The notes beneath the pieces were generated by a model. The model was not told where the DNA came from. It ran no database searches and saw only the letters and a list, made by a program, of their open reading frames with translations. Positions 1,972 through 25,631 of a DNA stretch of 25,631 bases are shown here, in pieces; position 1 is the first letter of the stretch; each line of letters begins with the position of its first letter. The stretch is from a virus (taxonomy: Duplodnaviria > Caudoviricetes): the IMG/VR virus record IMGVR_UViG_3300037461_000119, positions 1 through 25,631 of that record. One strand, written 5' to 3'. Made by a program: the position numbers and the translations under genes.

Positions 1972-2828
1972 AGCGGCTCCAGAATCATCTGCACCGCCTG
2001 ACCGACCTTGGTAGACAGGAAGTAGGCGAGTTGATCCGTTGCCAGCCGGTAATAGGTACCGTTCCACGTCAGCGTGTACGGCGAGCCAGCCGCCCCGGCC
2101 ACGGTGAGCTTGATCTGCCCTGTGCCGACATCGGGGAACACGGTCGCCCCGGTGTTGGTGAGCAGAATCTCGTCGAGCCCGTTCCACCCGGCAATCAGCA
2201 CGACCACCGTGCCGCCGAAGATCGCGGTCGGGCTCATCGCGCCGTAGCCTGCAAGCGAGTTGAATCCGAAATAGTCAGGCGTCGCGTCCTGCCCGACGGT
2301 GACGCTTGCCGTGATCGACTGCGCTACGACCTGAATGTCCACGTTCACCGTGGTCGTGCCGTTGGCGTTGGTCGCGGAGAGCGTGAACCGCTGGTCGGCG
2401 GTGAGGTTGGTGATGACCGCCTGCCCGCTCTCGGGCTTCGCGCCGGTCCACTGCGCATTCGCGGGCGTGGCGCTTGCGGTGATCGTGACCGCGCCCTGCA
2501 CAACCCACGTCAGTCCCACCGAGCCGCCCGAGTCGATGGTCAACTGGTCGGCAGAGAAGTCGATGGCGGGCGGCGAGGCCGCGAGCCCGTTCCAGTACCA
2601 GAACTCGCGCTCGTTGAGCGTGGGCTGGTTGTAACCAAGACTCGCAAGGTACGCCATCCAACGGTCGTTGAGCGCCCCGCTGGAGAACCCCTTCGATGCG
2701 AGGAACTGCATCGCGAGGTCGTTCAGCGAACCGCTCGTTGCGCCGTTGGCAAGAAAGAAGGCCCGCAGTCCATCGTTGACTGTCGGGCCTCCCGTGGCCT
2801 TGAGGATCGCGCCATTCAGCGTGTACAC
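1968..2828 (-). CDS. Putative virion surface protein (286 aa) with N-terminal 18-aa repeats and an Ig-like domain
   Basis: GTG start with GGGGAAG RBS; beta-rich Ig/PKD-like segment (LTWVV...FTLSATNANGTTTVNVDIQV); position among structural genes. Confidence 0.65.
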   Translation of the reverse strand: MYTLNGAILKATGGPTVNDGLRAFFLANGATSGSLNDLAMQFLASKGFSSGALNDRWMAYLASLGYNQPTLNEREFWYWNGLAASPPAIDFSADQLTIDSGGSVGLTWVVQGAVTITASATPANAQWTGAKPESGQAVITNLTADQRFTLSATNANGTTTVNVDIQVVAQSITASVTVGQDATPDYFGFNSLAGYGAMSPTAIFGGTVVVLIAGWNGLDEILLTNTGATVFPDVGTGQIKLTVAGAAGSPYTLTWNGTYYRLATDQLAYFLSTKVGQAVQMILEPL

Positions 2829-2829
2829 G
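2820..2829. repeat. CGTGTACACG palindrome, site 1 (covers the GTG start of the 286-aa gene)
   Basis: Exact 10-mer; extends to 14-bp palindrome AGCGTGTACACGCT (2818-2831). Confidence 0.8.
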
Positions 2830-2838
2830 CTTCCCCCG

Positions 2839-3003
2839 TCAGAACGGGTGACTCATCGAGCCTTCGCCGGGTGCGTACTGCACCGGCTCGGGCGCCTTCT
2901 CCTCGTCGACCGGAGTTTCGAGGACGACTTCCTCGGCCGGGGTCTCCTCGACCTCGACCGGCGACTCGTCCTCGATCTGCGGCTTGCGCTTGATGATGCC
3001 CAT
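2839..3003 (-). CDS. Small acidic hypothetical protein (54 aa, MGIIKRKPQIEDESPVEVEE...SHPF)
   Basis: Hand translated; ATG 1 nt after the upstream stop, GC3-rich codons, fills the gap. Below the ORF-track length cutoff. Confidence 0.65.
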   Translation of the reverse strand: MGIIKRKPQIEDESPVEVEETPAEEVVLETPVDEEKAPEPVQYAPGEGSMSHPF

Positions 3004-3004
3004 G

Positions 3005-3628
3005 TCAGGTCACCGCAGGCGAGGCCGCCGTGGCAGAGCCGAAGGCGCTCTCCCCCGTGACCAGCGCCCGGCTCGTGCGGTTCACGAAGCCGGTCTCGAT
3101 GACCGCACCCGTGGCAACTGCACCCGCCGCCGTGACCATCTTCGAGCCGAAGCCCGTGAAGGCCGGACCCGCGCCCGCATCACGCGAGCCGCCGTTGCCG
3201 AAGCCGAGAAGCGGCTGCGCAACGTAAGGCACGGTCGGCGCGATGCCGTCCGCCGCTGCACCGGACTTGCCGCCGCCGATGGCGGTAAGCACCGCCGTAG
3301 TCGCGGCCACGCCCGAGGGCAGCGTGACGCCCGGGGTGTAGTCGTCGGTGAAGCCAGCATCCTTGATCGACTGCGGCGCCGTCGGGTTGACGACGTTCAG
3401 CGAACCGATGCCGAAGCCGATGCCGGTGTTGAGCGCACCCGTCGAAGTGTTCGTCGGGTCGTTCGCGTAGACCGGCACGTTGTCGTTGTCCACCGGCCAA
3501 CTCGAAATGACGCGAGCGTCGAAGGGCGAGTTGGTCGGGCCAGAGAAAGGCGACATCAGCACCGCCTTCGCGCCCGCGCTCAGGGCGTTGGCGTTACCGG
3601 CCGTCTGTGCCATTCCATTTGCAGGCAT
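3005..3628 (-). CDS. Putative capsid decoration / minor structural protein (207 aa, Gly/Ala/Thr-rich)
   Basis: ATG 3628 behind GAGGAG; directly downstream of the major capsid gene; composition typical of decoration proteins. Confidence 0.6.
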   Translation of the reverse strand: MPANGMAQTAGNANALSAGAKAVLMSPFSGPTNSPFDARVISSWPVDNDNVPVYANDPTNTSTGALNTGIGFGIGSLNVVNPTAPQSIKDAGFTDDYTPGVTLPSGVAATTAVLTAIGGGKSGAAADGIAPTVPYVAQPLLGFGNGGSRDAGAGPAFTGFGSKMVTAAGAVATGAVIETGFVNRTSRALVTGESAFGSATAASPAVT

Positions 3629-3647
3629 GAACTGTCTCCTCGTCAGG

Positions 3648-3673
3648 GGTGGCGGCCCCGAAGGGCCGCCACC
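3648..3673 (-). terminator. 11-bp GC hairpin with cUUCGg tetraloop after the major capsid gene (no U-tract; weak terminator or mRNA stabiliser)
   Basis: Minus strand GGTGGCGGCCC-TTCG-GGGCCGCCACC, a perfect stem. Confidence 0.55.
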
Positions 3674-3694
3674 GTGTTGCAACCGTGAACTCGC

Positions 3695-4657: not shown

Positions 4658-4660
4658 GGC

Positions 4661-4784: not shown

Positions 4785-5966
4785 CCGACCGCGAGTTTCG
4801 GTAGCGCCCCAAGCCGCCTCGATGTCACCGCGAAGGTTCCCCGGCTGGCTGGCTCCCTGCATGGGAGTGTTCGACGGGGTGGACCTGACCGACGAGGAAG
4901 CGAGCTTGGCACGCTCGATGGGCGACTGTCCGCTTCGAGCAGCACCGGCAGCTTCCCGCTGCGCGATGATCCGAGAAATCTCGGGGTTCATCCTACAGGC
5001 GCGTTCATACGCCTGCTCCATCGTCATGTCAAGACCGCGGCGGGCGGCGAGTTCGAGGATGTCGGCCATGTCCTCGCGCACGTCGGCAAAGAAATCCTTG
5101 CCCTTGCCGAAGTTCTGGACCTCGCGCACGGCGTCGTCGCGGATGCGCTGCACCTGCTGCGCTTCGCGCTGCTGGAGCGCCCCGAGAAGCTGGTCGACGC
5201 GCGGGTCCTGAAACTGCTGCTGCGGCACCTGCTGCGGCTGGCCGCCCTGCCCGCCCATGCTGTTCACGAGCGCCGCATCGAGCGCGGCCACGTCCACGCC
5301 GTAGGACTGGATCAGCCCGACGATGGTGCTGGCCCGCTCCTGCGGCGTGCCGAAGCGCAGGCGCCCGACCATGTTCATCAGGTTGCCGGTCGCGGTGACG
5401 ATGTCGACGCCCTCGGCCTGCAACGCCGGGGCGAACTGCTGCTGCATCTGGTGCAGCGTCTCGGCCACCTGCCTCGCGCCCGCGGTCTGCTGGGCGAAGC
5501 GGGCGACCTCGGACTCGCGCCGCATGACCTCCTGCTGCACGTCCGGCGGCAGGGCGCCCCAATGCTCGCGGGCGCCCGGGCGCCAGCTACGCGGGGCCTG
5601 CAACGGCGCACGGGCCTCGCCCTCGGGCTTCTGCGGCTCGGGGCTGCCGTCGGCTGGCTTCGGGGGCCGCGCCTCGCCACGGGCCTGTGCGTCGGCCTCG
5701 GCTGCCGTCTTGGCGACTTTGCCGCCCTCGGCAAAGCGCCCACGCTCGTCCCTGACACGCTCGGCGGTCTGGGCCGGGGTCTCGCCCGCCTTGGGCTCGC
5801 CGCTCGGCGCAGCGGGCGCCTCGTGCTGCTGGAAGGCGCTCTCCAGCGTCGAGCGAAGGTCCTCGCTCGGGGTCGGTGGCGGCTCGCCGCCTGCACCGCC
5901 GCTCAGGGCGCCGTCCTCGGGAGCCGCCTGCATCAGGCGGCGCGTGTACACGTTGAACAGGTTCAT
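4782..5966 (-). CDS. Capsid scaffolding protein (394 aa)
   Basis: Disordered P/E/A-rich N-terminus with RDERGRFA, APRSW...W..LP..VQ.E..RRE motif and helical C-terminus; immediately upstream of the capsid gene; GAGGAG RBS. Confidence 0.8.
   Translation of the reverse strand: MNLFNVYTRRLMQAAPEDGALSGGAGGEPPPTPSEDLRSTLESAFQQHEAPAAPSGEPKAGETPAQTAERVRDERGRFAEGGKVAKTAAEADAQARGEARPPKPADGSPEPQKPEGEARAPLQAPRSWRPGAREHWGALPPDVQQEVMRRESEVARFAQQTAGARQVAETLHQMQQQFAPALQAEGVDIVTATGNLMNMVGRLRFGTPQERASTIVGLIQSYGVDVAALDAALVNSMGGQGGQPQQVPQQQFQDPRVDQLLGALQQREAQQVQRIRDDAVREVQNFGKGKDFFADVREDMADILELAARRGLDMTMEQAYERACRMNPEISRIIAQREAAGAARSGQSPIERAKLASSSVRSTPSNTPMQGASQPGNLRGDIEAAWGATETRGR
5943..5952. repeat. CGTGTACACG palindrome, site 2 (codons 5-8 of scaffold)
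   Basis: Exact 10-mer. Confidence 0.8.
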
Positions 5967-5983
5967 CTGGTTCTCCTCGGTCG

Positions 5984-8900
5984 TCAGTACGGAAGCATGA
6001 AGCCGCGCTTGGCCGCCTGTGCCAGCGCGGGGTCAATCTCGATGGCCTTCTGCCGGGGCGGGATGTAGGTCACGCCCGAGCCTTCGGTGTTCGCTTCGGC
6101 CATCAGTCGGTCGAACTCGTCTTTGCTGGTCGCGACGGTGTAGTCCTTGGTGCCGTCGGGGTTCAGGGTCTCGAAGGTCGGGCGCCCGAACTGGCCGACG
6201 ATGTCGCGAATCTCGGCCTTGCTGCCCGCCGCACGCAGCACTTCGGCCAGCGCCTTCATCATGCGCCGGTCGTAGACATCCTTGAAGCCGAACTCGCGCG
6301 GGGTGTAGTCGCCCGAGCCCTCCTTGCCCATCTTCTGCAAGAGCATATTGGCCCGCTTCATCTTCTGCTCGTCGGGCTTGGCGTACTCGTGCATTCCGTA
6401 GGACAGTCGGCGGTCGACGACTTCCTTCATGCGCTGCGCCGCCTCGGGGTCCTCAAGGTTGATGCGGGCGATTTCATCGTCCTCGAAGCCGGTCGGGTTC
6501 GCCTGCAACTGGCGCACCCGCTCGTCGATGGGTCCGCGTCCCTCGTTGCCGTACTCCTTGGCGGTGAGGATGCGCACGACCGGGTTGTCGGGATCGGTGG
6601 CCCACTGCACGGACTCGCTGCCGTAGCGCCGCGCGTGCGTCTCGCCCGGGCTGAACGCGAGGTACTGCTGCCCTTGCTGCACGGCGCGTCGCACGGCGTC
6701 GATGAGCGCGAGCTTGGTGTACTGCTCGGTCTCCATGAACGGTCCCTCGGGGACCATCTTGTTGAACGGCGACTCGGTCTCGCGGCTCAGGTTGCCGAGC
6801 GCATCGCGAATCTCCACCGCGCGGGATTCGAGCGGCGATGCGCTCGGCGCTCGGTAGTACAACTCGTTGAACAGTTCGTAGGCGGCCTGCTGTCGCGCCT
6901 CGAAGTTCGTCGGGTCGGTCGCTTGGAACTGTTCGAGCAGGTTGATGACGTGCTGCTCGCCCGGGGCGCGGTCGCTCGGCGGCAGGTTGCGAATCTGCTG
7001 GATGTAGTCGTCGAACGCGGGCTCGGTGAGCGCCGTCGTGACGCCCGAGAGCGCCTCGTTCTGGAATGCGGCGTTGCGTGCCTCGGTGTCGAGGCGAAGT
7101 TGCTGCGCGTTCTCGGGATCGAGGAAGCCAATCTTGCGGCCGCGCTGGTACGGATCGCTCTGCGCCTCCTCGATCATGCGCATCGGGTTGGGGTTGCCGT
7201 AGGCATCGGTCTGCACGCTGCCCCACTCGGGCGCGGGTCGGTCGGTCTCGCGGACGTGCAGCATATTCTCGCCGTAGTGCGTCGTGCCGCGCTGCGTGAA
7301 CGGCTCGCGTGCCTGCCCGATGTCGGGCAGCGCCTCGCGCTGCTGGATGCGCTCACGCTCGCGTGCGGCGAGCTTCGGATCGAGCTTGCGGTTCGGGTCG
7401 ATGGCGCCTTCCGGCCCGGCGATGCCCTGCTGGCTCATCTCGTCGAGCGCGGCAAGCTCGGCCTGCGGATCGGTGCCGCGGCCGAAGCGCCCCTCGCGCA
7501 GCACGTTGGCGAGCGTCACGCCGTAGTTCTGGCCTGCACCGCCCAGCACGTCGCGGCCTTCGCTGCGCGTGCCGCCGATGGTGTAGTCGCCGTAGGCGGG
7601 CACCGGCTTCGAGGGGCGCTGCGAGAGCCATGAGAGCGTGTCGGGGTCGACGCCCTGCTGCTGATACCAGCGGCGCTCCTCGCGGCGCTGCTGCTCGGCG
7701 CTCGGGGCATAGTCCCCGAAGTCGCTGGCGTTCTCGTGCGCCTGCTCCTCCCAATAGTCGCGCAGGCTGTCGTAGTTGAGCGGCTCGGAGTCGTAGTCGG
7801 TGACACTCTCGACGCTGTACTCGTCGCCGTCGTTCACCGAGTCATGCGCCGCACGCTCGGCCCACGCCTGCCGTGCGTTGTCGTCCATCTCGGCAAGCGT
7901 TTCCTCGTCGAAGTGTTCCTCGATGTTTTCGAGGTAATACTCGGTCTCGCTCTCGACGGCATCGTCCTTCAACTGCTCGATGTAACGCTCGGCGTCGCGC
8001 TCGTTGTCGAAGGTTTCAATCTCGTCACGGTAGCGGCCGCTGCCACGGTAGACGGTGTAGGTCTCGGGGTATTCGAGGTCGCTGTCCTCGTACACACGAT
8101 TGCTGACCCACTCGTTCACCTGATCTTCGAGGCTGCCGTCCTCGTCCATCGCCTCGCGCAAGGTCTGCTTGCCCGCGTAGGGGTTCTGCCAGCGCGGCAC
8201 GTCCTTCGCCTCGGGCGGCATCACGACCGGCTCGGGGCGCCCGCCCTTGGTCTCGAACCCCATCTGCGGCGCGTTACGCTCCGCGAGCAGGCGCACGTCG
8301 GCCGCACTCAGGACCTCGTCGGTGTCGAGGATGCGGTCGAGGCCCATCCAGCGAAGCTCGTCGGGCTTGGCACCGCTGCGCACGAGCGCCTGCCGCATCT
8401 GCCTGCCCGGGACCCGTTGCTCCTGCTTCTTGAGCTTGCCGAACGCTTCGAGCGTGGGCGAGCGGAAGCCGAAGTCGCCCTCCACTGCGTTGAGGTCCTC
8501 CAACGTGTACGCGCCACGCTGCCCGATGGGCACGCCCGCGAGCGCCTCGCCCATCGGCACCGCGGTCTCGGCGCCGCGCCGTGCGACGCTCTGTGCGCCG
8601 CGCAGGGCGGCAATCTTGGCCGCGGCCGGGGCCAGCATCTCGGGATCGAGGACGTTCAGGCCCGTGTACACGGCCGCGCCCACCGCAGGCGAGCCGGTCA
8701 CGTCGGCGGCCTTCTGGCCGACCGCCTGCATCCCGCGGTCGATGGGCTCCATGACCGTGCCGAGCCCGCGTGCGAACTCCTGCCCGCCCTTGCTGCGCGG
8801 CATGAACGTGAACCGCTCGGCGTTCTCACCGATGGTGTCACTCGCGGCGTCGAAGTCGATCTTCTCGCCCTTGAGCTTCTGACGGGCCATGCCCGCGAGC

Positions 8901-9037
8901 GTGCCGAGGCCGGTGCCCGCCTGCGCCACGAGCCCGGTGCCGAGCGTGAGGGCGTTCTCGGGCAGCCCTGCGGCGTTGCGCAGGATGTCCGCGAACAACT
9001 GCTGGCGGTTCTCGCGTGCGTAGGGGTTGACGGCCAT
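5984..9037 (-). CDS. Large putative internal virion / ejected polyvalent-type protein (1017 aa)
   Basis: Motifs GAKPDELRWMGL, THY..NMLHVRETDR, IEEAQSD..Q.GR, PEGPF......LAL....RAV..G..YLAFSPG, GFKDVYD recall the EExQSD-domain large phage proteins; function inferred. Confidence 0.55.
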   Translation of the reverse strand: MAVNPYARENRQQLFADILRNAAGLPENALTLGTGLVAQAGTGLGTLAGMARQKLKGEKIDFDAASDTIGENAERFTFMPRSKGGQEFARGLGTVMEPIDRGMQAVGQKAADVTGSPAVGAAVYTGLNVLDPEMLAPAAAKIAALRGAQSVARRGAETAVPMGEALAGVPIGQRGAYTLEDLNAVEGDFGFRSPTLEAFGKLKKQEQRVPGRQMRQALVRSGAKPDELRWMGLDRILDTDEVLSAADVRLLAERNAPQMGFETKGGRPEPVVMPPEAKDVPRWQNPYAGKQTLREAMDEDGSLEDQVNEWVSNRVYEDSDLEYPETYTVYRGSGRYRDEIETFDNERDAERYIEQLKDDAVESETEYYLENIEEHFDEETLAEMDDNARQAWAERAAHDSVNDGDEYSVESVTDYDSEPLNYDSLRDYWEEQAHENASDFGDYAPSAEQQRREERRWYQQQGVDPDTLSWLSQRPSKPVPAYGDYTIGGTRSEGRDVLGGAGQNYGVTLANVLREGRFGRGTDPQAELAALDEMSQQGIAGPEGAIDPNRKLDPKLAARERERIQQREALPDIGQAREPFTQRGTTHYGENMLHVRETDRPAPEWGSVQTDAYGNPNPMRMIEEAQSDPYQRGRKIGFLDPENAQQLRLDTEARNAAFQNEALSGVTTALTEPAFDDYIQQIRNLPPSDRAPGEQHVINLLEQFQATDPTNFEARQQAAYELFNELYYRAPSASPLESRAVEIRDALGNLSRETESPFNKMVPEGPFMETEQYTKLALIDAVRRAVQQGQQYLAFSPGETHARRYGSESVQWATDPDNPVVRILTAKEYGNEGRGPIDERVRQLQANPTGFEDDEIARINLEDPEAAQRMKEVVDRRLSYGMHEYAKPDEQKMKRANMLLQKMGKEGSGDYTPREFGFKDVYDRRMMKALAEVLRAAGSKAEIRDIVGQFGRPTFETLNPDGTKDYTVATSKDEFDRLMAEANTEGSGVTYIPPRQKAIEIDPALAQAAKRGFMLPY
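8663..8672. repeat. CGTGTACACG palindrome, site 3 (in the 1017-aa gene)
   Basis: Exact 10-mer; 12-bp palindrome CCGTGTACACGG. Confidence 0.8.
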
Positions 9038-13158: not shown

Positions 13159-13520
13159 GCTCGTTTGCGCCGTGCGTAGTCTGCGCCGCAGGCCCGGCAC
13201 CGCCGCTCGCCGTTAGGGCGCACTTGCGTGTTCGCCTCGGTGAACTCGTGCCCGTTGGTGCAGTGTGTCTTGAGCGCGTTGTAGCGACCGTGGCGACCCT
13301 TGCTCACCATGTCGAGCGAGTTGTCGCGGTGCGTGCCTAGAAACATGTGCGCCACGTTCACGCAGCTTCTGACATCGCACGCATGACACACGCACAGCCC
13401 GCGAGGGATTGGCCCGTGCTCGCGCTCCCATGCAGCCCGGTGTGCAGTGCCGTTGCGCCCGACCCTGCCGTAGCCATTCTTGCCGATGGCCCCTGCCCAG
13501 ATGATGCAGTCGCTAGTCAT
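13155..13520 (-). CDS. HNH endonuclease with C-terminal Zn-binding domain (121 aa)
   Basis: CIIW.G...NGYG, AHRAAWE..HGPIP.G..VCHACDVRSCVNVAHM..GT..DN..D, then KTHCTNGHEFTEANT...CRAC. Confidence 0.88.
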   Translation of the reverse strand: MTSDCIIWAGAIGKNGYGRVGRNGTAHRAAWEREHGPIPRGLCVCHACDVRSCVNVAHMFLGTHRDNSLDMVSKGRHGRYNALKTHCTNGHEFTEANTQVRPNGERRCRACGADYARRKRA

Positions 13521-14124: not shown

Positions 14125-14134
14125 CGTGTACACG
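14125..14134. repeat. CGTGTACACG palindrome, site 5 (just upstream of the RBS of the first late gene)
   Basis: Exact 10-mer. Confidence 0.8.
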
Positions 14135-14221: not shown

Positions 14222-14530
14222 CCGCCACAGCCTAGTGGCGGGGCCATGGAGCGGCTAAAAAGTGAGTATATATACCGCATTATTGTTAAATTGCCTGTTT
14301 TTTGTGGAAATCTGTATTCATATGCAAGTCTAGTGGCGGCTGTGGCGGAAAATGCGTTTTAGCCTACAAAACAAGGCACCAAACCCCCGCCACAGTATCC
14401 GTTTCCAGCGGCGGAAACCGCGGCGGCTGTGGCGGGGGCTGCGACTACGCCCCCCAACGGTACCTCGCCACCGTCTCGGCCTTGGCCCGCTGAAGCTTGC
14501 CTCCGCGAAGCATTTCCGGGGCTGTGGCGG
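14222..14530. repeat. Putative replication origin: AT-rich core flanked by CTGTGGCGG/CCGCCACAG repeats
   Basis: AT-rich stretch ~14256-14330; 9-mer in both orientations at about 14222, 14340, 14387, 14427 and 14522, plus two CTAGTGGCGG; at the 3' end of the primase gene. Confidence 0.6.
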
Positions 14531-16760
14531 GGATTCTGAGCAGCCACACACGTCGCCTTCCGTCGACCTCATCCCGCCGTCGACCAAGCATCTTCTCGGC
14601 CACGGCACGCACGTCGCTCGCCGTCCTCCGGTCGGCCGCACGTTCCCCGACCATCTCGCACAGGTCGGCCACGGTCACGACGTAGACCTCGGCATCGGCG
14701 GGCGCGGCAAGGCAGCGCCCAAGGAAGTCTTTCAGCCCTTCGACGGCCGGGGCGTCGTCCTCGAACTGCTCGGCCTGTGAAGCCCGCAGCGCGTCCTCGG
14801 CGTGCGTCAGGTGCCACTGCTCCCCGGCCTGCCAGAGCGCGTAGACCTCACCCCAGAGCGCCTCAAGGTCGATCCCGTGGTCGGTCTCCAACCCCTCGAC
14901 CGAGAGCGGCCAGAAGCGCCGTGAGCCCGTGTGATCGCGCAGGAAGCTCGTGCTGTTCACGGTGCCGCAGAATGCGGTCATGCGCGGCCAGTCCTCCCAC
15001 GTCGCGCCGTAGGGCAGCCTGAGCTTGTCGTCGGGGCGTGAGAGGAAGTTCTTCAACGCCCCGGCCTCGCTCGCCCTGAACGTGGTCTCAAGCTCTCCAA
15101 GCTCGACGATGATGCCGCCCGAGAGCGCCTCGAACACGCTGTCGCGTGCGGTCGGCCCGCTCAGGTGCAGCGACGCGCCTTCCTTGTAGAACCCGGCCGG
15201 TACGATGGTGCGGAACCACGTCGTCTTGCGCGTGCCCTGCTTCCCGGCGAAGGTCAGCACGCCCGACAGTTGCCGCGACGGTTTGCGCCAGCCGCACGCG
15301 GCCTCGACGCACTGGATCAGCCAGCGGCGTACATACGCCCGCGCACGCTCTGCGTCGGCCTCGGGGTCCGAGAGCTTGATCGTGCGCACCAGCGCCTCGA
15401 TATGCGCCTCACCGCGGCGAGCGGGCAGCGAGCGCAGCCAGTCCTCGAACGGGTGATAGGCGTTGGTGAGCGCGAGCCGGTTAAGTTGCACCATGCGCTT
15501 CGAGTCCTCGCGGATGCCGAGCATGGTCAGGATGTCCCCAAGCGCGGCGTCGGTCGCTCGCCGCCGGTCGCCTTCTGTCGCGCACCGTCGGTAGTAGTCG
15601 TGCGTGGCGAGCGCCCCCGGTGCGATGCTGTACTCCTTGCGCATCAGGTCGTAGCGTGGGGTGAGCCCAAGCCGCGTGACGACGTGTTCCACGTTGGCGA
15701 ACGTGGCGGGCTGTATCTTCGCCAGCCCTCGCTGCGTGCAATCGAGGTCTGGCAGGCTCTCTTTGGCGATGCGTGGGAAAGCCCCACGGAACTGCGCGTA
15801 GTTGCTGCCGAGCGCCTGCTTCAACTCCCCCGGCGTCGCGACCGGAACTTCCTGCTCGCGCAAAAGCCCGGCCAGCTTGTCCATCGTCTGCTCGGCGTCC
15901 ACCGTGCCCGGGCCACCCTGCTCGCCCACCCAACGCATGAACTCCTGTGTGTGTCGGTCCTTGCAGGTTGTGTGCTGGCACTTGAAGCCGCGCGTGCCGT
16001 TCTCGTCGAGCGGTCGATAGCCCGCCTCGGGCCGCGGGTCCGCGACGTGTTCGCTGCGCCACGGGCACAGAATGTCGATCCACTCGCCCTTGTCATGCCG
16101 CACGTCGCCGCGCTTGATGAGCCACGCCAGCACCGGATCGTGTTCGGCTCTCTCTGCGCTCACGAAGCTCTCAGTGCGCTCCACTTCGAGCGTGAGCCCG
16201 TAGGCGTCGGCAAGTTCCTGCACGCTCCAGAAGCGGTCAGGGTGCCACTCGTGCAGCACCGCCGCGAACGGTTCGGCGCCCTTGTAGTTGAGCGAGCCCG
16301 GCACGCGCATGATGCGGACACGGTCGACGCACGACTTGTCGGTGAGCCCAGCCGCGGCCAGCGCACGCATGAGAGCCTCGAACAAGTCGCCGTCGGTGCA
16401 TGGCTCGATGAAGTAGCCCCACTGAAAATTGCCGGGGGAGGTTTCGAGCTTGTAGCTGGGCGGGACGTGTACACGCTCCGCGTCGATCTTGGTACCGATG
16501 TCGTCCAGCACCACGACATAGGCCGCGCGGAAGTCGACCTTGCGCTTTTTAAGCGGCGTGGCCTTGGCAACCGTCGAGACACAGAAGTAGAGCGCGTCCT
16601 TCGACCGAGTTACCTTCGAGTCTCCGGGTAGCGCCCACTTCGCAGTGCGTGCGCCCTTGGGCATCAATCCGAAAACAGGCGTCTCGCCCTCGGGCACGTC
16701 GACAAAGATGGCGTCGAGGAACTCTTGGGCGCTCGGTGCGCCGTCGTTGCCCTCGCTCAC
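14445..16760 (-). CDS. Primase-helicase: RepB-type primase, Zn finger and VirE/VapE-like ATPase (771 aa)
   Basis: VVLDDIG, PSYKLETSPGNFQWGY and RIMRVPGSLN (RepB/AEP primase); CPWRSEH...FKCQHTTC; GKQGTRKTT, IVELGEL, LRLPYG and FCGTVN...FLRDHTGSRRFWP (VirE). Confidence 0.9.
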   Translation of the reverse strand: MSEGNDGAPSAQEFLDAIFVDVPEGETPVFGLMPKGARTAKWALPGDSKVTRSKDALYFCVSTVAKATPLKKRKVDFRAAYVVVLDDIGTKIDAERVHVPPSYKLETSPGNFQWGYFIEPCTDGDLFEALMRALAAAGLTDKSCVDRVRIMRVPGSLNYKGAEPFAAVLHEWHPDRFWSVQELADAYGLTLEVERTESFVSAERAEHDPVLAWLIKRGDVRHDKGEWIDILCPWRSEHVADPRPEAGYRPLDENGTRGFKCQHTTCKDRHTQEFMRWVGEQGGPGTVDAEQTMDKLAGLLREQEVPVATPGELKQALGSNYAQFRGAFPRIAKESLPDLDCTQRGLAKIQPATFANVEHVVTRLGLTPRYDLMRKEYSIAPGALATHDYYRRCATEGDRRRATDAALGDILTMLGIREDSKRMVQLNRLALTNAYHPFEDWLRSLPARRGEAHIEALVRTIKLSDPEADAERARAYVRRWLIQCVEAACGWRKPSRQLSGVLTFAGKQGTRKTTWFRTIVPAGFYKEGASLHLSGPTARDSVFEALSGGIIVELGELETTFRASEAGALKNFLSRPDDKLRLPYGATWEDWPRMTAFCGTVNSTSFLRDHTGSRRFWPLSVEGLETDHGIDLEALWGEVYALWQAGEQWHLTHAEDALRASQAEQFEDDAPAVEGLKDFLGRCLAAPADAEVYVVTVADLCEMVGERAADRRTASDVRAVAEKMLGRRRDEVDGRRRVWLLRIPATAPEMLRGGKLQRAKAETVARYRWGA
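16466..16475. repeat. CGTGTACACG palindrome, site 6 (in primase)
   Basis: Exact 10-mer. Confidence 0.8.
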
Positions 16761-17121: not shown

Positions 17122-17282
17122 CAGCGCCCCGCCATGCGCTCGGCGTCGTCCTCGGCGCAGTTGGCGAACCACCAGAGCGCCATGCTGCCGAACGCCCAGC
17201 CATCTTCACCGATGATGAAGCAGGCCAGCGTGGCGAGCCCGGCGCAGAACGCGACGGCGTCCCAGAAGTTGCTCTCGCTCAT
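17121..17282 (-). CDS. Small hydrophobic / membrane protein (53 aa)
   Basis: TGATG overlap with the upstream gene, GGAGG RBS; FWDAVAFCAGLATLACFIIG hydrophobic stretch. Confidence 0.6.
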   Translation of the reverse strand: MSESNFWDAVAFCAGLATLACFIIGEDGWAFGSMALWWFANCAEDDAERMAGR

Positions 17283-17839
17283 CACAGGTCCTCCCCGCAG
17301 CACGGGCAGCGTGTCGCAAGCTGGAACCACTGGTTCGACATCCGCCACACCGCGCCGCACGCGGAGCATTCGAGCTTCATATGGCGGTTCTTCTGCTTGC
17401 CCGCGCCGTCGAGCGTGAGCGAGCCGTAGTCGAAGGCGGGCATCGCGGCCAGCGTCTCGTTGATCCACTTGGCAAGCTCGGCGCCCGCGTGCGTCGCGGT
17501 CATCTTGCCTTCGAGCCCGACCGACTTGGCGACGCGCCGGAAAAATCCCTTGTGGCCGCTCTTGCAGTCGTCGGCGGCGTGGATGGCCTCATGCACCAGC
17601 ACGTCGACCAGCGTGAACGGCGTGCGCATCACGGGGTTGAGGAAAATCTCGTTCACGCCCTGCGAGGAGCGCGAGCGCGGCCAGCACTCCCCGATGCGCT
17701 TGCGGGCCGAGCCGCCGCCCGGGAAGCCGACCGAGACCTTGCAGTCGGCCGGGACGGTGGCGCCGTGGGCGGCGAGCAGCGGGGCAACGTGCTTGTGCAG
17801 GACCGTGGTTAGCCACTGCTCGCGGGTCATCTTGGTCAT
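17282..17839 (-). CDS. SprT-like zinc metallopeptidase with C-terminal Zn ribbon (185 aa)
   Basis: VLVHEAIHA (HExxH), GHKGFF, then CSACG...CPCC; ATG 17839 lies 6 nt after GGAG. Confidence 0.8.
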   Translation of the reverse strand: MTKMTREQWLTTVLHKHVAPLLAAHGATVPADCKVSVGFPGGGSARKRIGECWPRSRSSQGVNEIFLNPVMRTPFTLVDVLVHEAIHAADDCKSGHKGFFRRVAKSVGLEGKMTATHAGAELAKWINETLAAMPAFDYGSLTLDGAGKQKNRHMKLECSACGAVWRMSNQWFQLATRCPCCGEDL

Positions 17840-17845
17840 GGTCAT

Positions 17846-17903
17846 CTCCAGTGAGGTTGATCGAACGACAGGCAGTGTACACGCCCTGTTAGGAGATTGC
17901 AAC
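17846..17903 (-). promoter_or_regulatory. Early promoter/leader repeat, copy 3
   Basis: TTGCAA(17902-17897)-17 bp-TACACT(17879-17874), then GTTCGATCAAcctCACTGGAG. Confidence 0.85.
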
Positions 17904-18376
17904 TACCCAACCATGTTCATGCTGCGGACCTCGTAGCCCGCCTTGCGGATGCGGCTTGCGGCCGACGTGCGGTTGTGGGCGCCCACGAGTACCGTGTGCA
18001 TCGCGTTGCCCTGCCCCTCGACCTCGGCCTCGTAAGCGTGCGCCCCCGTGAACGGCAGTTCATTCACTACCGCCACCACTTTGCAGGTACGGGCCAGTCC
18101 GTTGCCCTGCTGGTTCCAGTAGTTGTAGCGCCCCGGGTTGCCACGGTCCTCACTGCCGTCGCGCCAGTGCTTCGGAATCTGGCACTCGTAGCCCGGGTGT
18201 GCGTTGCCGAGGAACTCGCAGTAGTTGACGTGGCAGTCGCCGCCCGGCCCGCTGGCGTCGTGGCTCTGGCTCACCTTGACTTCCCTCACACGGAACAGGC
18301 CGCCGTGGGCGATTATCAGGTCATCGACCTTGAGCGTGTTGGTGGGGACGCTGGCGGTGCGGTAGCGGGTCGTCAT
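17903..18376 (-). CDS. Hypothetical early protein (157 aa)
   Basis: ATG 18376 behind CACTGGAG and repeat copy 2; WNQQGNGLA motif. Confidence 0.75.
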   Translation of the reverse strand: MTTRYRTASVPTNTLKVDDLIIAHGGLFRVREVKVSQSHDASGPGGDCHVNYCEFLGNAHPGYECQIPKHWRDGSEDRGNPGRYNYWNQQGNGLARTCKVVAVVNELPFTGAHAYEAEVEGQGNAMHTVLVGAHNRTSAASRIRKAGYEVRSMNMVG

Positions 18377-18384: not shown

Positions 18385-18441
18385 CTCCAGTGAATTGATC
18401 GAACGAGAGGCAGTGTACACGGGCTGTTAGGGGATTGCAAC
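18385..18441 (-). promoter_or_regulatory. Early promoter/leader repeat, copy 2
   Basis: TTGCAA(18440-18435)-17 bp-TACACT(18417-18412), then GTTCGATCAATTCACTGGAG. Confidence 0.85.
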
Positions 18442-18469: not shown

Positions 18470-19222
18470 TTACCAGCCGCCCTTAAGGGCGCACTCGGGG
18501 CCGATGCCCCGGGCCACGCTCACCGGGTCGGTCAGGAGCCGCCCGCAGCACCCGCAGCGCCCCGTGCGCTGCCCGTGGTCCTCCAGCGCCCGGGCCGGGT
18601 CAACCTCGATGGCCGCGACCGCGGTAAAGAGGTCGTCGCGGCGCAGGGAGCCCGACTTGACCGTGCGGAACACCCCCTCGGTGCGGTCGATGACCCCGAC
18701 GAGGTCCTGCCCGTCCTTGACCCAGACGAGGTCGGCCGGGTCGTTGCGCAGCGTGAAGCGCAGGGCGCCCACGGTGAGGCGTGCGAAGCGGTCGGGGGCG
18801 ATCAGGGCCGCCAGCCCGGGGACGGGCAAAGTCGGCGTGGCGGGCCTCGCAGGGGCCTTCTCGATGGTCGTCTCGACCACCGGCAGCGGCCCCGGGACCT
18901 CCGGGGGCGCCGTGACGCCCGCCCACTGGCAGAGCTTGGCCGCGTAGTCGGCCTGCTTCTGGCTGGCGTAGGAGCCGTAGCGGTCGAGCTTGGCGGCGAT
19001 GTCGAAACAGGTCTCGGAGTCGCGGGCGGCGAGGGTGTTCACCCGGGTCGCGCAGCGGGCAGCGTACACGCGCCCAGCCTGCATTAGCTCGTCACGGGTC
19101 GGGCCGACGGGGGCGCCCACGCCTTCCCCCTGCACCGGGTTCGGCAGGTTGTACCGCTGCGCGACTTCGCTCATGCGGGCGCGGTTCTCGCGGCGGGCGG
19201 CACGGTTGGCTTCGTAGGTCAT
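18470..19222 (-). CDS. DUF6011-like Zn-finger early protein (250 aa)
   Basis: C-terminal G.RTGRCGCCGRLLTDPVSVARGIGPEC; S.KQ motif; ATG 19222 lies 6 nt after GGAG. Confidence 0.8.
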   Translation of the reverse strand: MTYEANRAARRENRARMSEVAQRYNLPNPVQGEGVGAPVGPTRDELMQAGRVYAARCATRVNTLAARDSETCFDIAAKLDRYGSYASQKQADYAAKLCQWAGVTAPPEVPGPLPVVETTIEKAPARPATPTLPVPGLAALIAPDRFARLTVGALRFTLRNDPADLVWVKDGQDLVGVIDRTEGVFRTVKSGSLRRDDLFTAVAAIEVDPARALEDHGQRTGRCGCCGRLLTDPVSVARGIGPECALKGGW

Positions 19223-19228: not shown

Positions 19229-19285
19229 CTCCAGTGAATTGATCGAACGAGGAGCAGTGTACACGCCCTGTTAGGGGATTGCAAC
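19229..19285 (-). promoter_or_regulatory. Early promoter/leader repeat, copy 1
   Basis: TTGCAA(19284-19279)-17 bp-TACACT(19261-19256), then GTTCGATCAATTCACTGGAG. Confidence 0.85.
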
Positions 19286-19288: not shown

Positions 19289-19474
19289 TCACCAGTCCCG
19301 GGTCGCCCGCCACGCATCGAACTCGGCCTCGGCCAGCAAAACGTCGGCCCACCACTTCGCCCGCGCCTTGCCCCGGCGCTTCTTGGCCGCCTTATGGTGC
19401 GCCACCAGCCGCCGCAGGCCCGCGACCTCGCGCGGCTCGGGCGGCGGGGGCGCGTAGCCCGCGAACAGTTTCAT
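19289..19474 (-). CDS. Small basic hypothetical protein (61 aa, MKLFAGY...ATRDW)
   Basis: ATGA overlap with the upstream gene; ends just before promoter copy 1. Confidence 0.6.
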   Translation of the reverse strand: MKLFAGYAPPPPEPREVAGLRRLVAHHKAAKKRRGKARAKWWADVLLAEAEFDAWRATRDW

Positions 19475-19911
19475 GCCGCCGCCCGCTTGGCCGCCTTGCG
19501 TGCCCGCTGATCGTCGCGGCGGCAGACGCGGCACGAGCGCCCCTTCTTGCCGTGGTAGGTGTTGGCCTCGTTGTACTCGTGCCCGCGCGGGCAGTGCGTC
19601 TTGGCACGCTGGAAGTCGCCCGCGTAACTGTGGCGGCTGCGCACCTGCACCGGGTCGGTGCTGGCCCACGTCTCGGGCAGCTTCGGCTTCGGCCCGGGCT
19701 TCGAGCGATTGTTGAACTTGAAAAAGTTGTTGCCCGAGAAGTCGCCGTGGCACGTCGGGCACCACGGCGAGAAGCCGGTGAGCGTGTAGCCGCTGCGCGG
19801 CCATATCGCTTCATCGAACTTCACGAGGCACTTCGAGCAGTGCGTCGGCGGCGGCTTCACCTGCTGCGACGGCTTGTAGGGCTTCTCTTTACGGTTGTTG
19901 TGTCCAGACAT
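19471..19911 (-). CDS. Basic Cys-rich putative DNA-binding protein (146 aa)
   Basis: ATG 19911 behind ACTGGAG; CSKC...CPTC and KTHCPRGHEYNEANT...CRVC. Confidence 0.7.
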   Translation of the reverse strand: MSGHNNRKEKPYKPSQQVKPPPTHCSKCLVKFDEAIWPRSGYTLTGFSPWCPTCHGDFSGNNFFKFNNRSKPGPKPKLPETWASTDPVQVRSRHSYAGDFQRAKTHCPRGHEYNEANTYHGKKGRSCRVCRRDDQRARKAAKRAAA

Positions 19912-21587: not shown

Positions 21588-21590
21588 AGG

Positions 21591-21619
21591 TTGCAACTCT
21601 CTACGCAGGGTGTTAGGGT
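21591..21619 (+). promoter_or_regulatory. Sigma70-type promoter for the rightward replication operon
   Basis: TTGCAA-17 bp-TAGGGT; same -35 as the early promoters. Confidence 0.55.
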
Positions 21620-21650: not shown

Positions 21651-22805
21651 GTGACCAAACATTCCCATATCGGCGGCTCGGGGGCCAAGCGCATCATCGC
21701 CTGCCCGGGCAGCCTGCGGCTGTACCGTGAACTCGGGGACGAGATTGCCAAGCGCGACGAGGCCAGCGAGTACGCCCGCGAGGGCTCCATGCTGCACTAC
21801 GTCATGGAGCAGGGCTATAACGACGCCTACGCCCTCATCGGCAGCGAGGACCTCGGCGGCTTCGGCGTAGCCTACACCGAGGAACACTACCGGACCAAGG
21901 TTGCCCCGGCGTGGCAGGCGTTCAACGAATACGTCTCGATGCTCGGTGAGCCGCTCGCCTTCGAGCAGGAGGTCCGCGTCCACGGCACGAGCATCCACTC
22001 CGACGCCTTCGGCACCGCCGACCTGATCGGCCGCCACTCGAACGTGCTGACCGTCCTCGACTGGAAGTTCGGGGATGGCGTGATGGTCGACGTGAAGGAC
22101 AACGAGCAGGGCTTGTTCTACGCGGCCTGCGCCCTCGATACACCCGAAGTGCAGGACTTCACGCGCGGTGTGAAGTTCGTCGACATCGTTATAGTCCAGC
22201 CGATGCGCGACAGCGACGAAATCTGGGACTCGCACCGGCTCACCGTCGATGAGGTCCACGAGTTCGCAGACCGGATGCGCCACGCCATCAAGCAGTCGAC
22301 CGTGATCCCGACCCCCTACGCCCTCGGGGATCATTGCCGCTGGTGCAAGGCCAAGCTCGACTGCCCGGCGCAGCGCCGCGGCATCGAGGAGGTCTCGCGC
22401 CGCACCGGCAACGAGGACTTGGGCAAGCTCCTCGTGGCCTGCGAACGCGCCGAGGACTTCATCAAGGAAGTGCGCGAGGAAGCGTTCAGGCGCCTTACCG
22501 CGGGAGAGCGTGTACACGGTTGGAAGCTGGTGCCGAAACGTGCGCAGCGAAAATGGCTTGACGCGGAGGTTGCAATGGCTACACTGCGTCGTGTCTACAA
22601 GCTGAAACCTTCCGAACTTCTCGTCAGCGAATTGGTTAGTCCCGCTCAAGCCGAGAAGCTCGTCAAGGCCAAGCAGAAGGACCCGAAGGACATCGCCGCG
22701 CTCGTGACGGCCGTGTCCAGCGGCAACACGCTGGCCCCAGACAGCGACCCGCGACCCGCAGTGCCCAGCCTTGCGGGCCTCGGCAAGCTGATCGAAGGCC
22801 GGTAA
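21651..22805 (+). CDS. DUF2800 / Cas4-like PD-(D/E)xK exonuclease (384 aa)
   Basis: GTG 21651 after AGGAG; HS.IGGS...R...CPGS, EGSMLH, FGTAD, LDWKFG, N.Q..FYA, HCRWCKAKLDC and GWKLV. Confidence 0.88.
   Translation: MTKHSHIGGSGAKRIIACPGSLRLYRELGDEIAKRDEASEYAREGSMLHYVMEQGYNDAYALIGSEDLGGFGVAYTEEHYRTKVAPAWQAFNEYVSMLGEPLAFEQEVRVHGTSIHSDAFGTADLIGRHSNVLTVLDWKFGDGVMVDVKDNEQGLFYAACALDTPEVQDFTRGVKFVDIVIVQPMRDSDEIWDSHRLTVDEVHEFADRMRHAIKQSTVIPTPYALGDHCRWCKAKLDCPAQRRGIEEVSRRTGNEDLGKLLVACERAEDFIKEVREEAFRRLTAGERVHGWKLVPKRAQRKWLDAEVAMATLRRVYKLKPSELLVSELVSPAQAEKLVKAKQKDPKDIAALVTAVSSGNTLAPDSDPRPAVPSLAGLGKLIEGR
22509..22518. repeat. CGTGTACACG palindrome, site 7 (in the DUF2800 gene)
   Basis: Exact 10-mer. 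Confidence 0.8.
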
Positions 22806-22836
22806 CTCGAAACGCAACTCGATAGGAAAGACGACA

Positions 22837-23520: not shown

Positions 23521-23568
23521 CCCGACCGGAGGGTGAGGCCCCGTTGCAAGGATGCCTCATGCGTGTTT

Positions 23569-23594
23569 GCCGAGCGCACCCGCTTCGGCTTTTT
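23569..23594 (+). terminator. Rho-independent terminator after the SSB-like gene
   Basis: GCCGAGCG-CACC-CGCTTCGGC (one bulge) followed by TTTTT. Confidence 0.6.
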
Positions 23595-23612
23595 CACTCA
23601 CTGGAGAACACC

Positions 23613-24047
23613 ATGACCTTAGCTGTCCCCGAGAAGGCGCCGCGCAGGCACTACGTCTATATCTGGCACGTCGGTCGCAGTCGCTACGTCGGCAGCGGCA
23701 CACGTTTCAGGGCGTGGACGCATCTCAGGCTCAAGCGCGGCGCAGGCCCGTCGCAACATATCCGCAACGCGCATCTCAAAGGCCAGCCGCTCAAGGTCGA
23801 GATTGTGGCCGACAATCTCTCGGGCGAGGATGCTGCCCGCCTTGAGCGCAGCACCATCGCACGCCTGTACGGCGACGCCAGCGTGAAACTGCTCAACGTG
23901 TACAGCGTGCCGAAGGTCAAGCAGTCCACACGGATGATCCGCTGCCAGTGCCCCACCTGCGGCTACACGCTGCGCACGACGAGGCAGTGGCTCACCAAGT
24001 CGGTGCCGGTCTGCGGCACCTGCAACATCTCATTCGAGGTTCGCTGA
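23613..24047 (+). CDS. GIY-YIG-like nuclease domain fused to a Zn ribbon (144 aa)
   Basis: ATG 23613 behind CACTGGAG; YVY...YVGSG...R...H...E...I...LLN (GIY-YIG/LEM-3-like), then CPTCG...CGTC. Confidence 0.7.
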   Translation: MTLAVPEKAPRRHYVYIWHVGRSRYVGSGTRFRAWTHLRLKRGAGPSQHIRNAHLKGQPLKVEIVADNLSGEDAARLERSTIARLYGDASVKLLNVYSVPKVKQSTRMIRCQCPTCGYTLRTTRQWLTKSVPVCGTCNISFEVR

Positions 24048-24048
24048 C

Positions 24049-25631
24049 GTGCTGCACCTTGATTTCGAGACCCGCTCGCCGGTCGATCTGCGCCGCCTCG
24101 GCCACGACTGCTACTTTGCAGACGAGCGAACGCGCGTGCTGTGCATGGCTTACGCGATGGAGGAAGGCCCGGTCGCGCTGTGGCTGCCCGGGCAGCCGTT
24201 CCCCGAACTCGTCCTCAAGCATATCCGCAAGGGTTGGCCGCTCGCGGCGCACAATGCCGCCTTCGAGCGTGCGGTGTTCGAGTACGGGCTGCTGCCCGAT
24301 GGCGTGCCGCTGCCGAAGCTGGAGCAGTGGGTCTGCACCGCGACGCTGTGCCGCTCGCGCGGGCTGCCCGGCGAGCTTGAGATGGCCGCCTATGCGCTCG
24401 GCATGGGTGAGCAGAAGGACCACCGCGGCAAGGAACTCATCAAGGCGTGCTGCATCGAGCCCGGGTGCAGCGACGAGCGCCTGCCCGAGCTTTACGACTA
24501 CTGCAAGCAGGACGTGCGGGCCGAGCGCGACCTGTACCGGCTGCTGCCGCCGCCCACCGACGAGGAGCAGGCGCTCTACCGGGCCGCCGAGCGCATCAAC
24601 GACCGCGGCATCGCCGTCGACCGCAACTTCTGCATCGCCGCAGGGCACTATCGCGACGAGGAGATGGCCGAGATTCGGGAACAACTCGACATCACGACCG
24701 ACGGGGCGGTGAAGTCACCGCAGGCGAAGCAGGCCGCGCAGAAGTGGATCATCGCCCGCTACCCCAATGCCGAGGAGTTGCGCGACCCGAAGCGCAAGAG
24801 CGGCTACTCGCTCGACAAGCATCATCTCGGGCTCTTTGCCGCACGCGACGACCTCGACGATGACACTCGCTACGTCGTCGAGTTGCTACAGGACGGCGCG
24901 AACACGTCGGTCTCGAAGTACGACGCCATGCTGGCCCGCAGCGGCGCCACCGGGCGTGTACACGGCGCCTACATGACCAACGCCGCGCACACCGGCCGCT
25001 TCTCCTCGAAGGGTGCGCAACTGCACAACTTCAAGCGCGACGTGCCGAAGGATTGGGTCGAGCGGATGGTCGCGGTCTACCGCCATACCCTGCCCGCGGG
25101 CACGGTGATGTCGACGCTGGCCTCGTTGCTGCGCCCGACGCTGATCCCGGCCAAGGGTCGCGTCCTCGCGGGCGGCGACTGGAGCGGCATCGAGGCGCGG
25201 CTCACGGCATGGTTCGGCGGCGCCGAGGAGACGCTCGCCATCTTCCGCGACCCGGAGCGCGACCTGTACGTCGAGACCGCCGAGGGCATGGGCTTCAAGG
25301 ATCGACAGGTCGGCAAGGTGGCGACGCTCGCCTGCGGCTTCGGCGGCATGGGCAATGCGTTCGTCGCGATGGCCCGCAACTACGGGCTGATCGTCTCCAA
25401 GGCTCAGGGCGACATATACGGCCGCGCATGGCGCGATGCGAACCCGTGGGCGCCGGAACTGTGGGCCAGCATCGAGCAGGCCGCCATTGACGCCATGCGC
25501 CGTCCGGGCAGCGTGTTCACCTGCACCGCGCTCGGCAACGTCGCCTTCGCGCAGGCCGGTCGCTGGCTGTGCTGCGAACTGCCGAGCGGCCGCGTGCTGT
25601 ACTACCTCGACCCCAAGCTCGAAGTGTCGAA
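24049..25631 (+). CDS. Phage family A DNA polymerase (3'-5' exonuclease plus polymerase), truncated by window end
   Basis: Hand translation from GTG 24049: LDFETRS (ExoI), HNAAFER (ExoII), YCKQDV (ExoIII), INDRGI, TGRFSS...QLHN, DWSGIEAR (motif A), RQVGKVATLACGFGG (motif B). Absent from the ORF track because it has no stop in the window. Confidence 0.93.
   Translation, partial: MLHLDFETRSPVDLRRLGHDCYFADERTRVLCMAYAMEEGPVALWLPGQPFPELVLKHIRKGWPLAAHNAAFERAVFEYGLLPDGVPLPKLEQWVCTATLCRSRGLPGELEMAAYALGMGEQKDHRGKELIKACCIEPGCSDERLPELYDYCKQDVRAERDLYRLLPPPTDEEQALYRAAERINDRGIAVDRNFCIAAGHYRDEEMAEIREQLDITTDGAVKSPQAKQAAQKWIIARYPNAEELRDPKRKSGYSLDKHHLGLFAARDDLDDDTRYVVELLQDGANTSVSKYDAMLARSGATGRVHGAYMTNAAHTGRFSSKGAQLHNFKRDVPKDWVERMVAVYRHTLPAGTVMSTLASLLRPTLIPAKGRVLAGGDWSGIEARLTAWFGGAEETLAIFRDPERDLYVETAEGMGFKDRQVGKVATLACGFGGMGNAFVAMARNYGLIVSKAQGDIYGRAWRDANPWAPELWASIEQAAIDAMRRPGSVFTCTALGNVAFAQAGRWLCCELPSGRVLYYLDPKLEVS
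24955..24964. repeat. CGTGTACACG palindrome, site 8 (in DNA polymerase)
   Basis: Exact 10-mer. Confidence 0.8.

Follow-up and report, generated by a model that had tools for sequence, protein, structure and literature searches.

Palindromes dispersed along a phage genome fragment and a SprT-like zinc metalloprotease as their candidate reader

The IMG/VR virus record IMGVR_UViG_3300037461_000119 (Duplodnaviria; Caudoviricetes) was analysed over its whole contig of 25,631 nucleotides (the window), which comprises about 60% of a phage genome and carries eleven palindromes of the GTGTACAC type, eight exact copies of the 10-bp form CGTGTACACG and three variants, AGTGTACACG. The candidate reader of these sites is a SprT-like zinc metalloprotease encoded on the minus strand (17282–17845), put forward because of its co-occurrence with dispersed words, the position of sites at its promoter and the covariation of its arm residues with the word. 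As judged from sequence comparisons, this protein very probably reads the palindromes by direct binding. The original prediction had proposed a dimeric protein acting genome-wide; action across the genome fits the comparative evidence and a candidate can now be named, and the dimeric state of the reader is inferred solely from the palindrome.

The exact copies start, as had been reported, at 2820, 5943, 8663, 11877, 14125, 16466, 22509 and 24955, and the variants at 17874, 18412 and 19256. Eleven of the 13 TGTACA hexamers lie inside GTGTACACG, the same number as counted previously, and the remark that several sites are longer than 10 bp holds for four of the eight exact copies (11877, 14125, 16466, and 22509), which extend to GAGCGTGTACACG on one strand. 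Six of the eight are located within genes, in the reading frames given earlier: R-V-H in the terminase large subunit (terL, 11877–11886), the primase-helicase (16466–16475), the DUF2800 exonuclease gene (22509–22518) and the family A DNA polymerase (24955–24964), and V-Y-T in the scaffold-position gene (5943–5952, codons 5–8) and a 1017-amino acid gene (8663–8672). The site at 2820–2829, part of the 14-bp perfect palindrome AGCGTGTACACGCT, lies across a start codon, overlapping the probable GTG start of a 286-amino acid gene (1968–2828), and that at 14125–14134 is non-coding, just 5′ of the ribosome-binding site of the gene at 13811–14107. In the window GTA accounts for 14 of 509 Val codons and CGT for 70 of 576 Arg codons.

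Comparison with Markov and codon-shuffled backgrounds revealed a marked excess of the palindrome. Eight 10-mers were observed against 0.18 expected under an order-3 Markov model (0.77 for the 8-mer); the earlier estimate of well under 0.1 copies is correct at order 2 (0.03) and too low at order 3. In 1000 synonymous-codon shuffles with the proteins held fixed, the 10-mer occurred 1.48 times on average, a mean that includes one fixed non-coding copy, and never more than four times, which supports the proposal that selection acts on the DNA instead of the protein. Chance or codon bias draws some support from GTG-TAC-ACG being a frequent codon string in GC-rich genomes, which in several bacterial genomes moderately exceeds a reversed control. 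Against it, the sites occupy all three frames plus non-coding DNA and the excess recurs in another phage, G042 (12 copies versus 0.06 expected); the explanation, to which we attach practically no weight, is refuted by the codon-shuffle and cross-phage tests.

The eleven sites are also spaced more evenly than random (coefficient of variation (CV) 0.44, p = 0.005), with a largest gap of 3253 bp (p = 0.0004), as are the eight exact sites alone (CV 0.42, p = 0.014). To this extent the near-regular spacing described in the original prediction was borne out; its tightest series (CV 0.145) keeps 19256 and omits 17874 and 18412, a choice made post hoc. The argument from even spacing for a role across the whole genome and against control of particular genes is not supported as an either/or, as three of the sites lie over promoter −10 boxes and the gene of the candidate reader follows one of these promoters.

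These three sites are the AGTGTACACG variants, which sit in a 63-nt direct repeat that had been overlooked. On the minus strand the repeat reads TTGCAA-N17-TACACT, followed by CACTGGAG and then a start codon, and matches a σ70-type promoter, a consensus from which promoter activity is predicted for each copy. Directly ahead of the SprT-like gene (17874–17902, minus strand), TTGCAA is located at 17897–17902 and TACACT at 17874–17879, with the site CGTGTACACT over the −10 box. A second copy with an overlapping site (18412–18440, minus strand) is found ahead of a 157-amino acid gene (17903–18376) and a third (19256–19284, minus strand) ahead of a DUF6011 gene (18470–19222). The last T of the −10 box is the reason that the three variants are imperfect palindromes. 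In 16 of 39 clusters the 150 bp upstream of the SprT-like gene contain an exact site, where 2.8 were expected with gene starts set mechanically. Scans for the promoter pattern itself matched 0 and 1 loci. A further promoter-like element, TTGCAA-N17-TAGGGT (21591–21619, plus strand), precedes the DUF2800-ssb-polymerase genes; it has TGTTAGG in common with the early promoters and no palindrome.

The SprT-like protein (numbered from the ATG at 17839) belongs to phrog_6361 (E 7e-37), with an ESM Atlas score of 0.98 to SprT-like clusters; its match to PF10263 reaches only E 0.001, below the cut-off of that family. It contains the HExxH motif and a third histidine ligand (His83, Glu84, His87, and His96) and a predicted zincin fold in an AlphaFold model with a predicted local distance difference test score of 93. 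The zincin protease starts at residue 6 and is followed by an additional C-terminal module composed of a basic arm (Gln149-Lys-Asn-Arg152-His153) followed by a zinc ribbon (Cys158, Cys161, Cys178, and Cys181). A fold search aligned 97 residues with SPRTN (6mdx; Z 7.9, root mean square deviation 3.3); abylysin, SPRTN (6mdx) and selecase, with archaeal minigluzincins among the matches, were tied at a middling Z of 7.7–8.0 over residues 2–137. A sequence search of the PDB, solved ArdC included, gave no significant match. A profile of the ribbon only matched 2,542 protein clusters, and the top 150 matches comprised 100 proteins with SprT, ribbon and HExxH, 37 fragments and 13 proteins with other N termini, such that 100 of the 113 non-fragments are SprT proteins. 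The ribbon was also found fused to another domain (P0128: phrog_3754, with a Cys/His pattern that by eye resembles a cysteine protease) and on short proteins without a catalytic domain (the P0128, P0179, and P0197 group).

Carriage of the SprT-like gene predicts a dispersed word. A dispersed, Bonferroni-significant 8-bp palindrome was found in 44 of 77 SprT-like viral loci compared with one of 165 control loci (Fisher 5e-26), where the 77 derive from a scan with a four-sequence alignment (80 of 118 confirmed relatives, with L001, L340, and L551, already used, removed) and the controls are loci without a SprT match in the DNA examined. The word was GTTTAAAC in 38 of the 44, CTTTAAAG in four and ATTTAAAT in two. 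For ATTTAAAT, the three copies in L002/L085 alone were sub-threshold (corrected log10 p −1.6) and the word was accepted there only through its match to L478/L480. With loci of at least 10 kb only, the word was present in 42 of 62 SprT loci versus one of 80 controls, and after de-replication at 70% identity in 32 of 47 SprT clusters; pooling five words, picked after the data were known, gave 56 of 77 versus 2 of 165, and 40 of 47 clusters. The gene is absent throughout in fifteen control records (capsid relatives) that are at least 90% complete, none of whose examined parts has such a word, and one control record has a SprT-like gene elsewhere with GTTTAAAC near it. Control loci L127 and L153 contain three CTTTAAAG and four hybrid words, respectively.

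Cultured phages follow the same pattern, with an enriched word in seven of the nine carriers examined (of 163 matches). GTTTAAAC was found in R5C (17 copies), Pan1 (16), Arya (7), and Persinger (4), and the hybrid GTTTACAC/GTGTAAAC in Zeta1847 (22), Maureen (17), and Bogota (39). Of these phages, R5C infects Dinoroseobacter shibae and Maureen infects Arthrobacter globiformis. The two carriers without such a word are Quenya, which has a deviant arm, and CN2, which gave no ribbon match. Quenya (L572–L574; arm R-S-G-R-S) has no TA-centred word and contains 12 copies of GCGATCGC (1.9 expected) and five of AAGCGCTT (0.19 expected), which may represent a further variant of the code. PmeI and SwaI, both rare cutters, recognise GTTTAAAC and ATTTAAAT, respectively, and 8-base cutters of the host could be one pressure for word switching.

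Two pattern scans for the 10-mer, the second over 36 of 64 parts, yielded 155 new viral loci with one copy in 142, two in nine and three to five in four. GTGTACAC ranks first among the k-mers of G042 (82 kb, complete; 20 8-mers versus 1.05 expected), G041 (11 versus 0.39), and L340 (6 versus 0.25). Because the records G041 and L340 derive from a single sample and contain the two halves of one portal gene, they were counted as one phage. In-gene sites of the other GTGTACAC carriers occupy all three frames. The SprT-like gene is the only non-replication gene common to the window, G042 and G041/L340, and has sites upstream of it in each. A G042 site at 27391 (L445 7391) lies 6 bp 5′ of the TTGACA −35 box before the Lsr2 gene of that phage. 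Five further word-bearing records, four of them fragments and one complete with four sites in 123 kb, gave no SprT match.

Closer relatives of the window do not share its word. The 10-mer was absent (0 copies) from 164 relative loci (1.75 Mb). Most of these loci were capsid relatives, the best 80 of 552 from a scan covering 28 of 64 parts and the best 80 of 461 from one covering 25. The conservation in related phages proposed in the original prediction as a check was literally not found, in that the 10-mer is absent and sites are not kept at orthologous codons; this is no refutation, as the relatives that carry the SprT-like gene use another word. Every lineage places its own word where possible, often by way of rare codons. 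In the terminase, for example, L002 has GCA TTT AAA TTG where the window has GCC TAC AAG CTG, and an 82%-identical relative has different codons at the position of the 11877 site and ATTTAAAT elsewhere in the gene. The window lacks GTTTAAAC, the hybrid word and TTTAAA, few of which are expected at 66% GC, so that no avoidance is demonstrated.

Five residues of the arm, Q-x-x-R-x, ahead of the ribbon covary with the word across 65 cluster-by-arm units. A His or Tyr follows the Arg in all three GTGTACAC units (QKNRH, QSNRH, and QTTRY) and in none of the 62 others (descriptive p 2e-5). The Arg is missing in all four CTTTAAAG units, with Tyr in its place in three, and in only three of the 61 others (descriptive p 5e-5), of which one has no word, one has no ribbon and one has a shifted Arg with GTTTAAAC. 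QPTRL is present in both ATTTAAAT units, one of which is sub-threshold. On a tree of the protease domain, from which the arm was excluded, well-supported branches force three changes for GTGTACAC and four for CTTTAAAG. The SprT protein of the window groups with its two nearest relatives, those of G073 (QSTRM; 18 GTTTAAAC, no CTTTAAAG) and G072 (QATYL; 15 CTTTAAAG, no GTTTAAAC).

Several points weigh against the SprT-like protein as reader and protease. The code was derived from data that also test it, the GTGTACAC class has three members, two of which were located by word search, and the tree is a quick one (75 rows and 138 columns, near-identical same-word rows removed) with many open forks. 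Despite pooling of five words, 21 of the 77 SprT loci have no significant word, 12 of these being under 10 kb, and evenness was significant in six of the 11 genomes or contigs tested, the exceptions being Zeta1847, Arya, G041, L340, and G046. The word occurs without a SprT or ribbon match in G046 (279 kb, complete; 12 GTGTACAC versus 1.36 expected), G043, and G044, from which it follows that GTGTACAC has at least one other reader, and the missing ∼40% of the window phage could encode another. Regarding the catalytic domain, fold Z-scores up to 8 are common, the matches cover only residues 2–137, and the invariance of HExxH in alignment A4 was partly built into the search pattern. The nearest functional analogue is ArdC, a catalytic mutant of which still overcame restriction (PMC7213743).

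If the SprT-like protein is the reader, the eleven palindromes would be docking sites for the phage's own protease, recognised through the C-terminal arm and zinc ribbon, and the protease would be stationed every 2–3 kb along the phage DNA. Tethered in this way, it could clip proteins that load on or track along that DNA, most likely host defence enzymes, and through the three copies over −10 boxes it could hold down its own early expression. Of these two roles, such autoregulation at the promoters is the likelier and probably occurs. The guard function and its substrate, proposed from sequence, are more tentative, with the chance that both are right falling a little short of even. A guard function is favoured because the catalytic motif is kept, the sites span all modules with a capped gap, and complete carriers lack integrases. 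None of the five carriers searched, of which two are complete, yielded a tyrosine or large serine integrase, and this speaks for a role in lytic growth. ArdC provides a precedent for a DNA-bound, Spartan-like antirestriction protein (PMC7213743), and proteolysis of DNA-bound type I complexes also has a precedent (PMC11109961).

The rival explanation with most in its favour retains the SprT-like protein as the reader and makes it a repressor, with operators at early promoters and in-gene roadblocks like the stoperators of phage L5, a protease that serves self-cleavage upon DNA damage, and words that define immunity groups. This model accounts for promoter overlap and word switching equally well. 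Sites lie over the −10 boxes in the window and in the −35/−10 spacer in G042, and 16 of 39 clusters have one upstream of the gene; three of the eight exact copies in the window fall at a gene start or close to one, and the words of close relatives are mutually exclusive, as in heteroimmune phages. Moreover, Zeta1847 and the phages of cluster EH have integrases and no identified repressor (PMC7302621), SPRTN autocleavage depends on the DNA-binding modules of SPRTN (PMC7534798), and G074 is classed as a provirus. Set against this are the absence of an integrase from all five carriers searched (a provirus was included, so that the negative is not airtight), the location of the gene among early genes behind strong consensus promoters, the five of eight exact sites that lie at least 96 codons inside genes, and the divergent replication-gene promoter at 21591–21619, which has no site. 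We consider a repressor rather unlikely, at somewhat better than one chance in four. A reader that is a housekeeping protease, clearing DNA-protein crosslinks or tight host nucleoid proteins with sites that only raise its local concentration, would fit the fold match to SPRTN and Wss1 and the order of parts, a protease followed by zinc-binding and basic DNA-binding parts as in SPRTN (PMC7534798). However, it leaves the seven or more changes of word on the tree, each needing a genome-wide rewriting of sites, without a reason, and SPRTN recognises DNA structure, not sequence; we regard it as improbable.

Similarly improbable is a different reader of GTGTACAC, a protein of the host or one encoded in the missing genome portion, with the SprT-like gene as a bystander or regulated target. 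In its favour are G046, G043, and G044, in which the word was found and the gene was not, and the helix-turn-helix (HTH)-like gene beside a G043 site; word and arm residues nevertheless covary on independent branches, and the carriers infect different host phyla (Lsr2 in G042; cultured hosts). None of 40 bacterial or archaeal genomes comes near phage density (at most 46 per 4.9 Mb), a 16-bp scan returned about 190 matches scattered across taxa, and no repressor family matched the seven small unannotated window open reading frames scanned. Programmed nicks of the T5 and phiKMV-like type are strand-specific, at asymmetric sites spaced by ∼3 kb. The similar spacing here, together with HNH and GIY-YIG-like genes in the window, would suit programmed nick, modification or packaging-register sites, an explanation that we regard as very improbable and for which the assembled contigs gave no evidence. 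The site here is symmetric and those nick sites are not; the word tracks the protease gene and not a nuclease or methylase, no methylase match was found among the window proteins scanned, and one-mismatch neighbours are not depleted (8 observed versus 9.5 expected at order 3 and 15.8 at order 4).

Two kinds of host word were tried as candidates, and neither gained support. For a HIP1-like word, 119 of 120 listed loci (of about 190 matches) had a single 10-mer and the small sample of 40 genomes had at most about one site per 100 kb; these genomes include the unpublished G034 and G039, with no claim resting on them alone. For host nucleoid sites, compared against the parS, SlmA, and matS consensus sequences, the best parS-like match in the window had four mismatches, no SlmA site was found within two mismatches and no matS was found. 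The chromosomal parS consensus matched in 12 of 169 loci, including L004 (BUCT555) at 473, 2371, and 37885 near the genome ends and L085 at 14906. The nucleoid-site idea arose from palindromes in relatives, and those of L140 and L104 group together in a single intergenic stretch: L140 (1518–1579) has three tandem copies of the SlmA-site word GTGAGTACTCAC, and L104 (1831–2886) has clustered GTTAG-N6-CTAAC and CTAACGTTAG operators. The SlmA-site word appears in PMC3020112. Of the records with GTGTACAC and no SprT or ribbon match (G046, G043 at 741 and 3553, G044 at 4147 and 8629, and G049), G043 and G044 have the word within the −35/−10 spacer in the same register as the G042 site at 31598, and the HTH-like gene of G043 adjoins one of its sites.

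The zinc ribbon is present a second time in the window, on a GIY-YIG-like nuclease domain (23613–24047, plus strand; Atlas 0.95; TM 0.75 to a LEM-3-like model) followed by the same type of arm and ribbon, which is consistent with a DNA-targeting module. The arm, Q-S-T-R-M, is elsewhere paired with GTTTAAAC-type words. None of 11 candidates was a homolog of similar length to the fusion. The gene (23544–24047, plus strand) is inserted between the ssb-like gene and the polymerase, behind a decayed early promoter cassette (TTGCAA...CACTGGAG).

The window encodes a portal, terminase, primase-helicase, helicase, DUF2800 protein and polymerase A, and its capsid protein is 74% identical to that of BUCT555 and 61% to that of Mx8. 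The contig is present in five wetland or sediment runs, of which three are its possible source, the same capsid protein is also encoded on a 38,096-bp contig, and primase and terminase searches returned four and three loci, respectively. Sequence differences between contigs of four runs flank the sites at 5943 and 8663, with none inside among 40 of 266 listed, a comparison too weak to be used. The 1017-amino acid gene (5984–9037, minus strand) is inserted between the portal-adjacent gene and the scaffold and has no Pfam or PHROG match, with a 52% match in L483 and a weak match in L101; around its 3′ end (5922–6095) other samples differ at 11 or more positions. An HNH endonuclease gene (13155–13598, minus strand) lies between the terminase subunits, and a second gene (19471–19911, minus strand) has an HNH-associated C-terminal domain. 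Five copies of CCGCCACAG (two plus, three minus) at 14222–14530, between the primase end and the late region, may be origin iterons; another copy is found at 19628.

Short words under DNA selection replicon-wide, also in genes, include the KorB operators of RK2, cyanobacterial HIP1, Chi and DNA uptake sequences, the readers of which are ParB-type repressors, host methylases or host nucleases. To our knowledge none of these readers is a replicon-encoded protease with a switchable arm. The L5-type stoperators resemble the present array in having one phage protein, sites at promoters and genome-wide, and a specificity that varies among relatives (PMC9283540). They differ in that each is an asymmetric 13-mer, lies in a short intergenic space in the orientation of transcription and is bound by the monomeric HTH repressor of temperate phages (PMC9283540), whereas the sites described here are 8–10-bp palindromes, mostly in genes, tied to a protease-ribbon protein and also present where the carrier has no detectable integrase. 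Among the window proteins scanned (the record being 60% complete), none matched a repressor or an integrase. SPRTN and Wss1 share the SprT-type fold and HExxH with a third His, and have zinc-binding and basic parts after the protease (PMC7534798; 6mdx and 5xbn). SPRTN recognises single-/double-strand junctions and ends and cleaves crosslinked proteins, with no sequence code or site array (PMC7534798); the covariation here points to base-specific reading, unlike such structure-specific recognition. ArdC of plasmid R388 likewise combines a DNA-binding domain with a Spartan-like metalloprotease on a mobile element and acts against type I restriction, although its single-stranded DNA-binding domain is N-terminal (PMC7213743) and the extra module here is C-terminal. 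A literature search that omitted most subscription journals and supplements found no link between SprT-like phage proteins and a DNA word; in the accessible part of PMC12363180 mycobacteriophage SprT-like proteins are noted only for their likeness in fold to SPRTN, and the main text of PMC7302621, as far as available, lists other motifs and no SprT. The system has the layout of a stoperator array and a predicted protein fold like that of SPRTN and ArdC, and lacks defining features of stoperators and of ArdC.

In its widest form, which is speculative and which we would back at less than one chance in three, the proposal is of a widespread undescribed system in which a SPRTN-like protease docks genome-wide by a residue code and destroys arriving host defence motors. 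Phages would re-code arm and genome to escape enemies that learn a common word, and in this phage, which would have moved to GTGTACAC, the GIY-YIG fusion would be an old GTTTAAAC-type reader turned into a weapon against competing phages that still use the common word. The family for which a candidate target and code are now available was previously unannotated and spans at least 164 cultured phage records. If the reading is true, this family would gain both a DNA target and a recognition code, and the strategies of phage regulation or counter-defence that we found include no protease that is tethered to DNA in a sequence-specific manner and has its sites arrayed over the whole genome. A change of one or two residues shifts the 8-bp specificity of the ∼45-residue module, which might therefore be of use as a small, programmable tag for DNA binding, and cultured carriers with harmless hosts (Maureen, Zeta1847, Bogota, and R5C) make the system experimentally accessible.

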